NCBI GenBank assembly: GCA_045590435.1
Contig: JAZNQW010000171.1
Coordinates: 1-27,562 of the forward strand
DNA: 27,562 bases
DNA from: Alphaproteobacteria bacterium
GTDB taxonomy: Bacteria; Pseudomonadota; Alphaproteobacteria; RF32; CAG-239
Direction of reading: 5' to 3'
A program made the translations under genes and the position numbers. Shown here piece by piece: positions 21,802 to 26,078 of this stretch. The notes under the pieces are model-generated. The model had not been told where the DNA came from and made no database searches. It worked only from the letters and a program-made list of their open reading frames with translations. Within the stretch, counting starts at the first letter, position 1, and every line of letters starts with the position of its first letter.

Positions 21802-24800
21802 CTATAGACGATAATCAGAGGCCTTTCTGTTATATTGGTCCTTCAAGTTAGGATTTATTTCGTGTAACAATAACATATTTTCCAGTGCTTCGTAATGCGG
21901 ATTAGACTGTTTGGCCAAACGAATCAATAATGTTTCGCCGTTAATGTTTTGTGAATTAATATTCAATCCGGCGCTTGTAAACAAAATAACGAATTTTTCA
22001 ACTTGTTCCACCAATTCTTGAGTAGGCATATCTTTATTTTTTTCTACGCTATCGGCCAACTGTAAAATCATGTTGTTACCGTCATAATCAGTTTTTTGAA
22101 AGTCAACTTTTGCAGTTAAGGCATATTCCGCCAAATCAGCATTCAAATTGAATAAAGCATGTTCCAAAAGATTTTTCTGCTCGGAATCAATATAATCCAG
22201 CTTAGCCCCATAGGCTAATAAGTCTTCCAAAATTCCGCTTTGTGCGGAGGTTAAGTTTGTCAGATACACTTTATCATTGATAACCATATTGGTATCAGCA
22301 TTATTTTGCAATAACGCGCGAACAATCGGTTCATTGTTTTGAGCAATTGCTAAAGCCAATGCTGTTTGCCCATTGGCATCCAGAGCATCAATTTCTAACC
22401 CTTTAACAGCCACGGCCGACAGATAATCTTTATCATATTTATTACGAATAATATAATGCAACAAAGAATCTTTTTGTTCATTACGGCTATTGACATCAGC
22501 ACCATGAGCAATCAGTTTTTGGAAGATCATTAAATTACGATTCTTCAATGCCTCCCACACATATTTATCATCAATTTTCTTCACATGATTTAAAGCAATA
22601 TCTACTAATTCCGGTTCAATATCTGCCGTTAAGATAAAGTGCAAAGGGACTTCATTACGACTATCCGGTTGGTTTAAATCAATTTTTTCGAATACATCAT
22701 CAAGTAAATCAGCGCGTTCCTGTAAAACCAAAACCATCCATAACGGCTTGTCTATTTTAGGAAGATAGCCTGTATAATCAGAATTATGCGCTAAAATTTG
22801 AGATTCGATTTCTTCTGGTACCTGATGTTGCAACACATAAGTTAAAGCACTTTCCTGTTCGGAATTGGTTAAATTAACATCAGCACCGTTTTGCAGTAAA
22901 GTAGTTACCATTTCATAATCTTGCGCCACCAATGCTTTCATTATTAAAGTTTGACCGACTTTATTGAGGGCGTTTACATTGGCACCGTTTTGTAAAATCA
23001 TGTGCAAAATAGGTTTCGGAATTTGGTGTGTGTAAGCATAGTCAAGCAAACTGTCGCCATTTGGTGATTGAGTGCTTAAATCGGCGTTAAATTCCAAAAA
23101 CAGGTTGATTAGGTCGGTATTTTGCTGTTTAATAGCCAGTAAAAAGGCGGAATTTCCTTGCTTATCTTTGGAGTTTACATCAGCACCGGCCATCAACAAA
23201 TCGCGAATAACCGGTTCCGGCATCTGTTCCTTTAAAGCCACAAGCAATACATTATTGCCCTGTTGATCACACGCATTTATATCGGCTCCTGCTTTAATTA
23301 AAGCCTGAATAATCGGTAATTGAACTTTTTCTTTAACAGCCGTCAACAGAATGGTATTACCGTTGGCATCCTTCTTCTTTACATCCGCATGTTGTAACAG
23401 TAAATATTTTACCATATCTGAATTATTGAGACGAACTGCTTCTTGTAATGCCGTGGTGCCGCGCGGATTAACTGCTTCAACCACCTCTTTCGAGGTAGCA
23501 AATTTTTGTATAATTTCAGTCGGTGCAGAAATATTAACGGCATAACTTAACGGATTTAGGCCGAAATATAAACTGCGATTTTGTTCCATAAATTGTGTCG
23601 GATTAATTTTTTGATACGTTTCCATATCGGCCATATCGGAAGCCAACATAGTCATTTGTTTTTCCAGTTCATTCAATATGTCCGTTTTACCGGTATTCAG
23701 GCCCAACCATAAAATGGTATACCACATATTGCGACGTTCGGCATATTCATTTAAGCGATTGTTTTTATAGGCCACAAAAACATCATTGATGCGTGGCGTG
23801 TGTGCAATGTTTGTTTGCGCCATTTCCACATCATCCATAAAATAACTGACCTGTTCTAATTCCCCGTCGGCTCCGAAAATGCGGGAAATACCGTCTTTTT
23901 TATCATTTCTGTAATTTTCAATCAGTTTTTGCGTGCATTTACAGTTCGGATCTTGTGGAGTGCGATTATACGTTTCGATATTTTCAATGGCGCCATTATC
24001 AATCCATTCGGCATGTACGCCGTTTTTCTTATCGTTCAAATAAGTGGTGCGTGTGGCAATACGTGTGGTTGGTGAAAAACTTTTGCCAACACCGGATTTC
24101 ATGTCATCAACATAAGGAATAATGGTAATACCGCCATCTTCGGCATAAATACGATGAGGCCCGTTGCGTTTGCCGTTTTTATAAGTAATTTCATCAGTTA
24201 AATATTTGCTATTATATTTTTTTGTAACACCGTTAAGTTGACCATTAACGTAATTATTTTCTTCCACAAGCATATTATTTTGAATAATGCGTTCAATACC
24301 GTTTTTGACGCCATTTTCATAATGTTCTATTCTGGTTAAATTACCATTGCGGTCAAAATAATTGGTTTCGCCGTTAAGTTTACCGTTTTCATAAAAACTG
24401 CGTTGTTGCGGTTTGCCGTTGTTGTAAAATAGAATAAACTCGCCGTCTAAGACATTATTTTTATAAGTTTTTTTATATTGAGGCTGACTGTTTTCATAAA
24501 ACATAATTTCTTCGCCGTTTTTCATGCCCTTACGATACGTAATTTCTAACTCTAACTTACCGTCTTCATAGTGTGATGTGGCCACCCCGTGTTTCAATCC
24601 GTTACGATAAAAATATGTTATTTGACGGCCTTCGCTATCCGGTATCACAACAGCGCCGGAAAAGATTTGCCCGTCAGTGATATAAGCAATTTCATGGCCG
24701 TTATCGGTTTTAAATTGTATTTCATCCGCATTATGAACCACAACACTTTCCGCCCAAACCGGCATAGAAAGCATAGTTGAAGTCAGTAAGCAAAAAACAA

Positions 24801-24816
24801 ATTTAGAACCAAACAT
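21802..24816 (-). CDS. Putative secreted MORN-variant (YwqK-like) repeat + ankyrin repeat protein
   Basis: Signal-peptide-like N-terminus (MFGSKFVFCLLTSTMLSMPVWA); repeats of Y-x-NG-x-K/L-x-G in the first about 330 aa; many GADVN/GNT-LL-A ankyrin repeats afterwards; AAGGAGAGG RBS. Confidence 0.85.
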   Translation of the reverse strand: MFGSKFVFCLLTSTMLSMPVWAESVVVHNADEIQFKTDNGHEIAYITDGQIFSGAVVIPDSEGRQITYFYRNGLKHGVATSHYEDGKLELEITYRKGMKNGEEIMFYENSQPQYKKTYKNNVLDGEFILFYNNGKPQQRSFYENGKLNGETNYFDRNGNLTRIEHYENGVKNGIERIIQNNMLVEENNYVNGQLNGVTKKYNSKYLTDEITYKNGKRNGPHRIYAEDGGITIIPYVDDMKSGVGKSFSPTTRIATRTTYLNDKKNGVHAEWIDNGAIENIETYNRTPQDPNCKCTQKLIENYRNDKKDGISRIFGADGELEQVSYFMDDVEMAQTNIAHTPRINDVFVAYKNNRLNEYAERRNMWYTILWLGLNTGKTDILNELEKQMTMLASDMADMETYQKINPTQFMEQNRSLYFGLNPLSYAVNISAPTEIIQKFATSKEVVEAVNPRGTTALQEAVRLNNSDMVKYLLLQHADVKKKDANGNTILLTAVKEKVQLPIIQALIKAGADINACDQQGNNVLLVALKEQMPEPVIRDLLMAGADVNSKDKQGNSAFLLAIKQQNTDLINLFLEFNADLSTQSPNGDSLLDYAYTHQIPKPILHMILQNGANVNALNKVGQTLIMKALVAQDYEMVTTLLQNGADVNLTNSEQESALTYVLQHQVPEEIESQILAHNSDYTGYLPKIDKPLWMVLVLQERADLLDDVFEKIDLNQPDSRNEVPLHFILTADIEPELVDIALNHVKKIDDKYVWEALKNRNLMIFQKLIAHGADVNSRNEQKDSLLHYIIRNKYDKDYLSAVAVKGLEIDALDANGQTALALAIAQNNEPIVRALLQNNADTNMVINDKVYLTNLTSAQSGILEDLLAYGAKLDYIDSEQKNLLEHALFNLNADLAEYALTAKVDFQKTDYDGNNMILQLADSVEKNKDMPTQELVEQVEKFVILFTSAGLNINSQNINGETLLIRLAKQSNPHYEALENMLLLHEINPNLKDQYNRKASDYRL

Positions 24817-24904
24817 AGGTGCCTCTCCTTAAAAATTATTTTTTTCAAACTTAGCACGAGCAACCTTAAAAATCAATTAATGTAATTTTTGAGACAAGGT
24901 ATTT

Positions 24905-25070
24905 AAAAAAGAGAAAGCTCAGGGGATTTCACAATCGCCTGAGCCCGAAATGTTTAATTTTTTTCACACAATCAGTCCAAGGGGTGTGCAACCGCTCGAA
25001 CCTCGTTAACTTATTGTTTTACCTTTTCAGTATGACCGGCACAAGGTGTTTCACAACCGCTTGAACCGAT
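24905..25070 (-). ncRNA. Candidate structured small RNA: three related hairpins, the last followed by a U-tract
   Basis: Hairpins at 25070-25035, 25001-24975 and 24944-24917 share GGYTCRRG-CG-RTTG; two carry a GUGA (GNRA) tetraloop; compensatory pairs differ between copies. Confidence 0.55.
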
Positions 25071-25153
25071 AATTATAAAAAAGATTTGATGATTTATATT
25101 GTTATTTATGTGGCTTAATAATTCAAATGCTAATTATAGAAAAATCAATTACT

Positions 25154-25181
25154 TTTATAAAAGAGTGAGTCTAAAAGTCAA
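25154..25181 (-). promoter_or_regulatory. Possible promoter for the candidate ncRNA (TTGACT-N16-TATAAA)
   Basis: TTGACT 25181-25176, TATAAA 25159-25154; back to back with the promoter at 25192. Confidence 0.4.
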
Positions 25182-25191
25182 GTAAAAAATA

Positions 25192-25220
25192 TTGACAAAA
25201 GAAAGTAAGTGTGGCAGAAT
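25192..25220 (+). promoter_or_regulatory. Sigma70-type promoter TTGACA-N17-CAGAAT with extended -10 TG
   Basis: TTGACA 25192-25197; TG at 25212-25213; CAGAAT 25215-25220. Confidence 0.6.
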
Positions 25221-25259
25221 AAATCTGATTTTCTTTATTATTAACTTAAATTGTATTGT

Positions 25260-26078
25260 ATGGTATTATTAGGAATAGTTGGGGCACAAAGCCCTATGGG
25301 CAAATTGGTGCTCGAGCTGTTACAACAGCACACGGAAAATTACAAGGTCATATTCACGGTTGATCGCAGTTACAAAGCATCGCACAATAAATCTGAATAT
25401 GCCGATTTGGAAGACGCTTTGTTGTCTCAGACTCCGACTATGGTGCTTGATTTCGGCGAGCCTAAGACGGCTTTTGAACGCACCAAGATTTACCGGTATT
25501 ACTTTGTGCCGGCCGTTATGTATGCGCCTGCCTTTACCAGAGATCAGTTGTCGCAATTGAGGGCCGTTCGTTCAGGTTCGCAACGTTCGATTCCGTCGCT
25601 GATTATAGAAAACGAATTGTCGCTCAGTCATGTATTGCTCCGAGAACAACTGATACAAACACTGCGTGTTTTTGCTTCTCAGGTAATGTTTGTTAAGATT
25701 TATCTGAAGGAAACGACAGATAACTATTTGGAACGCTATCTGCCGCTGTTGGAGCAAATCAATCGCGAGCTTAGAGTCAAAGAAAAGCCCGTCAAACATA
25801 TTAAGTACCGCGGTAACCAAGTTGAGTACGGCAGAGCCTATGTATATTTATTGTCGTCGAGAGAGGACCAAACTTCTGTTCAAGAAGAAATGAAAGTAGA
25901 AGTTTGCTTGGATCGAGGATTGGATGTTGTTCCGTTAACATACCAGTTTCCTAATCATCGGATGACAGTTTGGCAAGGGCTTGACCGGCTTTTGACGCAT
26001 TTGATAACCCGCTTATCAATTGTCAACGGTGAACTTGATGTGGATGTGTTGGCACAGATAGTGCGTCAATCTTATTAA
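25260..26078 (+). CDS. Divergent DapB (dihydrodipicolinate reductase)-like fold protein lacking catalytic motif
   Basis: LGIVGAQSPMGKLV, VLDFGEP, PAVMYAPAFTRDQL and IIENELSLS parallel DapB IAGAxGRMG, VIDFTxP, PxVIGTTGFxxEQ and APNFSLG; no EHH-x2-K-x-DAPSGTA. Confidence 0.5.
   Translation: MVLLGIVGAQSPMGKLVLELLQQHTENYKVIFTVDRSYKASHNKSEYADLEDALLSQTPTMVLDFGEPKTAFERTKIYRYYFVPAVMYAPAFTRDQLSQLRAVRSGSQRSIPSLIIENELSLSHVLLREQLIQTLRVFASQVMFVKIYLKETTDNYLERYLPLLEQINRELRVKEKPVKHIKYRGNQVEYGRAYVYLLSSREDQTSVQEEMKVEVCLDRGLDVVPLTYQFPNHRMTVWQGLDRLLTHLITRLSIVNGELDVDVLAQIVRQSY

Follow-up and report, generated by a model that had tools for sequence, protein, structure and literature searches.

The window analysed in this work is the whole 27,562-nucleotide stretch of contig C171, part of a 1.55-Mb metagenome-assembled genome (G000; 196 contigs, 40.8% G+C, 98.9% complete). 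It contains a 443-bp intergenic spacer flanked by two divergent genes, and within this spacer lies a region of three hairpins read on the minus strand. Two other copies of the region are referred to below, one in a sister species (G053) and one, near-identical, which was the only further copy found by a metagenome scan (L126). The features of the locus are as follows:

21802-24816, minus strand: gene for a MORN_2 and ankyrin protein of 1004 aa with a signal peptide (open reading frame and Pfam), the downstream neighbour
24848-24876, minus strand: the MORN-ankyrin gene's own promoter, TTGATT followed by TGC-TAAGTT (extended -10)
24905-25147, minus strand: predicted non-coding RNA of about 243 nt, from the predicted start to the U-tract
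24905-24916, minus strand: U-tract UUUCUCUUUUUU, which overlaps the final two G.U pairs of hairpin C
24915-24946, minus strand: hairpin C, with a 9-bp lower stem, C.C mismatch, GAUU/AAUC and GUGA loop; predicted terminator stem
24947-24973, minus strand: linker 2, A-rich, between hairpins B and C
24974-25002, minus strand: hairpin B, with an 8-bp lower stem, C.C mismatch, GGU/ACC and UGCAC loop
25003-25034, minus strand: linker 1, A-rich, with one change relative to G053 and one more in L126
25035-25070, minus strand: hairpin A, with lower stems, a 2x2 loop CG/AC (which includes C.C), GUU/AAC and GUGA loop
25071-25147, minus strand: A/U-rich 5' segment, 90-93% identical to G053, for which no stable fold is predicted
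25133-25138, minus strand: conserved TATAAT, identical in G053 and L126, either an alternative -10 box or part of the RNA 5' region
25154-25159, minus strand: -10 box TATAAA of the RNA gene, 17 nt past the -35 box (TATAAC in G053, TATAAA in L126)
25176-25181, minus strand: -35 box TTGACT of the RNA gene, also TTGACT in G053 and L126
25260-26078, plus strand: DapB_N-like gene (open reading frame and Pfam), the divergent upstream neighbour and a boundary marker outside the RNA element

A sequence-only reading of the window had described the three hairpins, linkers of 33 and 30 nt, a U-tail and both minus-strand promoters, and all of these were recovered. The hairpin sequences are as it wrote them, and each folds alone on the minus strand, with energies of -15.1, -11.3 and -17.9 kcal/mol and z scores of -2.9, -1.9 and -3.7 for A, B and C, respectively (9+4 bp in C). 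On the plus strand A and B fold poorly, and a 191-nt stretch scores z -4.15 on the minus strand vs. -1.72 on the plus strand. Hairpin A keeps the limits first proposed for it; B gains one G.U pair (25002-24974) and C gains two (24946-24915). The GNRA loop that had been assigned to both A and C is present in both, but the 2x2 internal loop thought to be common to them exists in A only (CG/AC), while B and C have a 1x1 C.C mismatch after which the next G pairs with C. The pair-preserving swaps noted between A and C are real (GUU/AAC vs. AUU/AAU, and CAAG/CUUG vs. CAGG/CCUG), and a third two-sided swap is found in the lower stem (U-A/U-G vs. C-G). When aligned, the three copies show 72% mean column identity and follow a common plan, in which 7-9 bp of lower stem lead to an invariant C opposite another invariant C, then to 3-4 bp of upper stem and a loop that is GUGA in A and C and UGCAC in B; several of the stem pairs are G.U. 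Searches were made with three covariance models, R1, which was built from the three copies, and the further models R2 and R3. The similarity between the hairpins is far beyond chance, as R3 finds A and C against the whole genome (E 2.1e-4 and 1.4e-6, respectively) and has no match at E ≤ 1e-3 in 139 genomes sampled from elsewhere in the class Alphaproteobacteria, with one genome per family. Hairpin B is missed by R3 and is found by R1 (E 3.7e-7).

The region stands out sharply in the comparison with G053. In 40-column bins the block 25143-24904 is 90-100% identical between the two species, while the flanking genes are 60-87% and the flanking spacer on both sides 60-68% identical; the products of the DapB_N-like and MORN-ankyrin genes are 72 and 78% identical to their G053 counterparts. 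The conserved block starts just after the TTGACT-N17-TATAAA promoter and terminates at the U-tract, which reads UUUUUCUUUUUUU in G053. The same three-hairpin arrangement is present in G053, where hairpin A is identical and the hairpins as a whole differ at one loop base and two stem bases. The loop change is in hairpin B, and the two stem substitutions, one in B (U.G to U-A) and one in C, both convert a G.U into an A-U pair and so keep the pairing. Between these two species the linkers are as conserved as the hairpins. The sequences of linker 1 and linker 2 are unrelated to each other.

Both hexamers of the RNA gene promoter are kept in G053 and in L126 with a varying spacer between them, and from the promoter boxes transcription is predicted to start at about 25147. 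The TATAAT at 25133-25138, where the high-identity block begins, was paired by the promoter scan with TTTATA at 25161. The same scan places a TTGACA beginning at 25192 in the promoter of the DapB_N-like gene. A simple terminator scan did not call hairpin C and its U-tract, a miss which we attribute to the C.C mismatch splitting the stem. No ATG was seen on the RNA strand of the conserved block when it was read by eye, and no tRNA or tmRNA was found in the predicted RNA. The sharply bounded block, the conserved promoter and the predicted terminator support the earlier suggestion of a stand-alone sRNA.

The RNA does not correspond to any family that we could find. A search of the whole window against Rfam 15 gave no match at gathering score, alpha-r8/suhB/MmgR, alpha-r14, 6S and riboswitches included, in line with the first impression that the element is not a known family. 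Within 24700-25350, searched up to an E of 10, the best hits had E values of 0.99-6.8, far below gathering, and were all to eukaryotic or plastid families; Rfam returned nothing for the related loci L011, L012, L016 and L045 either. No description of this hairpin module was found in the literature. We rate the predicted RNA as a new family absent from Rfam.

A BLAST-type search with the whole spacer against 40 relatives produced low-complexity A/T matches only, and homology of the RNA is detectable only with covariance models. Building such a model from the three copies, as had been proposed, did bring in further species. R1 gave weaker single matches in other species of the genus, and the loci concerned turned out on reading to be non-coding stretches in which consensus-type promoters, a terminator and several hairpins with GNGA loops could be recognised. 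At E ≤ 1e-3, R3 detected the module in 60 of the 149 other genomes of the same family, representing 11 of its 20 genera; none of the R3 matches inspected was in rRNA. With no match in the 139 genomes from other families, the module is specific to this one family of rumen Alphaproteobacteria. Across the family the arrays hold from one to six module hairpins per RNA. In the other genera the module forms part of promoter-plus-terminator units and is also seen 13-86 nt past the stop codon of ordinary open reading frames (125-320 aa), where it is followed by a U-rich tail; the comparison shows that in these genera the module caps what are predicted to be ordinary gene terminators. Module units are also located away from any MORN gene, and other units of the module family likewise have TTGAC(A/T)-N16-17-TATAA promoters. 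Some units are in tandem, as with two in G046 and three in G045. The three consecutive promoter-plus-terminator units of G045 lie in 1.1 kb of non-coding DNA (locus L012, C38:3840-6876, minus strand 1300-2400); units one and three share the terminator AAUCCCCUUGGUCGUGUACCUCGGGGAUUUU, and unit three has orthologs in G003 and G062. In a genome of another genus, G077, four module hairpins follow a tiny open reading frame (L120 on C34, plus strand, about 1150-1320), which encodes a very basic peptide of 46 aa (MKKNETRKASNKAKYNK...) and has its own TTGACA promoter.

Within the 1.55-Mb G000 genome itself, regular expressions, hairpin scans and R3 all place the module at the window locus only. A separate sRNA-like unit was observed at C52:3417-3690 on the plus strand (L045:618-891), with a TTGACT...TATAAA promoter, several hairpins and a strong terminator. 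It has one loosely similar hairpin, AAACAAAGG-C-GUUU-GCGA-AAAC-C-UCUUUGUUU, and a possible counterpart in G053 (R2 match at C5:83004).

The module consists of a variable lower stem, a pyrimidine-pyrimidine 1x1 mismatch (C.C in the window), a short upper stem and a GUGA tetraloop. The mismatch was not imposed by the search: the hairpin finder was set to a GNRA loop and 7 or more pairs, and in the RNA-bearing loci it returned mostly hairpins with 4 bp, a 1x1 mismatch and a long stem. Among 42 hairpins listed under stricter rules, 20 had C.C as the mismatch, nine U.C, three C.U and three C.A, and the apex consensus was Y-YRUU-GUGA-AAYR-C. The loops observed here are GUGA, GCGA or UGCAC. If the module is defined by a 4-bp upper stem with a GNGA loop, a Y.Y mismatch as position 5 and six or more pairs in the lower stem, it is seen complete in hairpin C and, with one extra G.A, in hairpin A; hairpin B deviates, its upper stem having 3 bp and its loop 5 nt. 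Two variants of the apex, UGUC-GUGA-GAYA and UGUU-GUGA-AAYA (e.g., 25046-25059 and 24924-24937), seem to resemble helix 36 of 16S rRNA in its two common versions, GUGUCGUGAGAUGU and GUGUUGUGAAAUGU.

Several lines of evidence bear on whether these inverted repeats matter as RNA or as DNA. In a set of 44 hairpins, 93.5% of the cells pair, 13 out of 13 pairs change on both sides, which was equalled in none of 500 shuffles, and slid partners pair at 36-53%; the pairing percentages are inflated because the hairpins were chosen for folding. Largely free of this bias are the G053 bins, the R2 scan of the MORN loci described below, the count of G.U against A.C, and RNAalifold. Run on nine orthologous upstream regions aligned simply with MAFFT, RNAalifold recovered a module of 9 bp, 1x1 mismatch, 4 bp and GUGA loop, with five pairs that show two-sided change and keep the pair in at least one sequence. 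Many of the compared species are close kin and the counts are thus not independent. In the stems G.U outnumbers A.C by 69 to 8 under a selection rule which is strand-symmetric, and this indicates that selection acts on the gene-strand RNA and not on DNA. Conservation and covariation in orthologous intergenic regions, which the original proposal called for, are thus found in the G053 block, in the arrays at the MORN loci and in the RNAalifold result. Taken together, the comparisons show the module and the predicted RNA to be under purifying selection at the RNA level.

It could be argued that the feature works at the DNA level, either as palindromes for a DNA-binding protein or as a REP-like or degenerate CRISPR-like cluster, since every unit is an inverted repeat and the period of 57-64 bp with unrelated spacers is superficially repeat-spacer-like. 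The one-strand bias of the G.U pairs and the far better folding of the minus strand speak against this, and we consider such an explanation most improbable. Dispersed palindromes of the REP/BIME type were rejected on the ground that the genome has a single locus, and a CRISPR array was rejected since the repeats are only 72% alike, the would-be spacers are conserved in G053 and L126, and the spacing is irregular in the relatives.

The position of the RNA with respect to the MORN-ankyrin gene was addressed by choosing loci by the MORN ortholog and not by the RNA. All 50 genomes of the genus have an ortholog, and 28 loci (about 100 kb, both strands) were scanned with R2 without filters. The scan gave 30 matches at E < 0.5 in 11 species, and all 30, their positions being read by eye, were 5' of the MORN ortholog and co-oriented with it. 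Together with G000 and G053, arrays of two to six hairpins thus precede the MORN ortholog in 13 of 30 species. The gene upstream of the arrays varies and is cold-shock-like in several species and DapB-like in G000; among the relatives checked, synteny via the DapB-like gene extends to G053 only. At two loci (L084 in G013 and L096 in G060) the TTGACA...TAnAAn promoter of the RNA is embedded in a hairpin with a U-tract, which is situated just 3' of a cold-shock-protein-like gene and resembles the terminator of that gene. A promoter within a hairpin was also observed upstream of the arrays of G064 (L093) and G012 (L091), where the upstream gene falls outside the stretch that was read. In these promoter-bearing hairpins the hexamers are kept and the sequence of the stem varies.

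This recurrent position invites the reading that the hairpins are a cis element of the MORN-ankyrin gene, being either a tandem attenuator in its leader, as one of the original suggestions had it, or a terminator array which shields the gene from upstream transcription. In 13 of 30 species it is found directly 5' of the MORN ortholog and co-directional with it, despite differing upstream neighbours, as such an element would predict, and the likeness of A, B and C does allow register-shifted pairings in this clade. The remaining 17 of the 30 orthologs have no such RNA, which is therefore dispensable for the MORN gene. The claim that this gene appears to have its own promoter held up well: the promoter is conserved across the genus, recurs whatever lies upstream, is situated 3' of the terminator and before the gene, and is kept also where the RNA is missing. 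In most of the upstream regions read (L078-L104 among them) TTGATTTT and then a GTGATA-like box (e.g., GTGATAttt) precede the ortholog. Since the MORN gene has its own conserved promoter, the RNA is a separate unit. Hairpin C, moreover, is always formed, with a pairing probability of 0.95-1.0 in the full RNA and no competing fold predicted, register shifts are impossible in other species where the lower stems differ between copies, and units with the same module stand alone elsewhere. A near-consensus promoter for the RNA would also be superfluous for a passive insulator. The attenuator is thus disfavoured, and control in cis as a whole appears improbable to us, if less so than a role as DNA.

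The folding of the complete RNA adds a complication. At equilibrium hairpins A and B are displaced by a nested helix (24974-25085, minus strand) in which the 5' arm of A pairs with the 3' arm of B and the 3' arm of A with the 5' arm of B; it is lengthened by about 12 A/U pairs from the flanks and is predicted at -58.9 kcal/mol, vs. -48.7 kcal/mol for the three local hairpins. This helix is the thermodynamic optimum because the lower stems of A, B and C are alike in the clade of G000; in other species the lower stems vary from hairpin to hairpin and do not allow it. The three-hairpin form may perhaps be only a kinetic state, and the modelled nested helix may be a switch or a by-product of recent duplication.

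The reading that we prefer is that the locus holds a stand-alone gene whose product is a structured non-coding RNA of some 240 nt, the modules of which form a multivalent platform for a trans factor. As a whole we hold this statement to be rather probable. It is very probable that the non-coding RNA gene is independent and belongs to a new module family, while the role of the RNA as a multivalent platform for a trans factor is proposed tentatively. Transcription would proceed from the RNA's own sigma-70-type promoter (TTGACT-N17-TATAAA), and the last module, hairpin C, would terminate it together with the U-tract, judging by the predicted structure. The RNA would then act in trans via the apexes of its modules, which would offer several binding sites for one factor. 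The apex is the likeliest working part because it is the only feature conserved across genera, the conservation of the linkers not reaching beyond the sister species. The factor would most likely be an RNA-binding protein which also meets the module on terminator hairpins: the presence of several apexes per RNA suggests titration or scaffolding, and the same apex capping ordinary terminators suggests that terminator hairpins are where the factor is normally met. The RNA would titrate or scaffold this factor as CsrB titrates CsrA. Shared control or plain inheritance may account for its position before the MORN-ankyrin gene, but a common transcript would not. The hairpins as protein-binding sites, whether in a sponge or in a processed array, as the sequence-only reading had proposed, are a plausible idea.

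The main competitor to the platform is a base-pairing sRNA dependent on Hfq, in which the A/U-rich 5' segment and the linkers would be the seeds and the hairpins would provide stability and the terminator. Hfq is encoded in the G000 genome (a ProQ gene was not found in it), the RNA ends in a hairpin and U-tail and has A-rich single-stranded linkers, and the 90-100% identity between the window and G053 covers both the linkers and the 5' segment. The distant orthologs, however, show the reverse of the pattern usual for seed-driven RNAs, as their linkers cannot be aligned but their hairpin apexes hardly vary. With the MORN 5' region as a target, duplexfold of the RNA gave -41.9 kcal/mol, an unremarkable value at the 17.5th percentile of 400 other genes; this is a crude comparison that ignores intramolecular structure and carries little weight for or against. 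Base pairing of this kind is in our opinion unlikely, although it is to be taken more seriously than control in cis. Were the RNA merely a lineage-specific base-pairing sRNA, it would still be new as an RNA family and missing from Rfam, but its interest would be ordinary.

Going further, the module could be the recognition site of a family-specific RNA-binding protein at terminator hairpins, for which the multi-module RNAs would be dedicated sponges. We regard this as a long shot, about on a par with the base-pairing sRNA. If true, there would be a global post-transcriptional circuit parallel to CsrA/CsrB but unrelated to it, by which 3'-end protection or termination would be controlled. The combination of promoter-driven RNAs and terminator caps does point to a sequence-specific reader of terminator hairpins, and to our knowledge nobody has described one for hairpins of this type. 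Conservation of the module extends over at least 11 genera in a single family of rumen Alphaproteobacteria, which are uncultured and have small genomes, and a covariance model and dozens of loci are supplied with which rumen metatranscriptomes can be searched.

Comparison with known systems places the RNA as follows. The boxB site of phage N protein is a hairpin with a GNRA fold, a pentaloop and no internal mismatch, and occurs in phage operons beside boxA. The module resembles it, as a lead only, in being a short hairpin with a GNRA-type loop and a candidate site for protein recognition on nascent RNA; it differs in having a tetraloop and a mismatch, and neither a phage context nor an N-like gene was seen here. 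Hairpin C agrees with an intrinsic terminator, being a stable stem followed by a U-tract. Hairpins A and B, in contrast, have no U-tract, the module is repeated in RNAs with a promoter of their own, and neither the conserved apex nor the destabilising mismatch is needed for termination. The cuckoo RNAs (alpha-r14/CcsR/NfeR1) have two to four adjacent hairpins with a common top motif and highly variable stems (PMC4615179). They are the closest architectural analogue, since the RNAs described here have one to six adjacent hairpins (three in the window) with a shared apex, variable stems and in some cases tandem units; the likeness is one of architecture only. The cuckoo loop motif CCUCCUCCC is absent from the window even with one mismatch allowed, and the window RNA is therefore not a member of that family. 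Moreover, the cuckoo motif is single-stranded, whereas the shared part here is a GUGA tetraloop closed by a 4-bp stem above a pyrimidine mismatch, an apex that cannot serve as an anti-Shine-Dalgarno seed.

Bacterial RNAs made of repeated hairpins with identical tops are few, the CsrB/Rsm sponges and the cuckoo RNAs being the main ones, and each has revealed a regulatory circuit. CsrB, RsmY and RsmZ are stand-alone sponge RNAs with many similar hairpins and a terminator, in which a GGA in the loop binds CsrA. The loops of hairpins A, B and C have no GGA, and the CsrA gene (PF02599) was not found in the 98.9%-complete G000 genome, while control genomes gave matches. What the two have in common is the presence of many similar hairpins along with a terminator and the proposed titration by several equal sites. 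By analogy, the predicted RNA would work most like a multi-site RNA of the CsrB type, with a different module in the place of the GGA hairpins.
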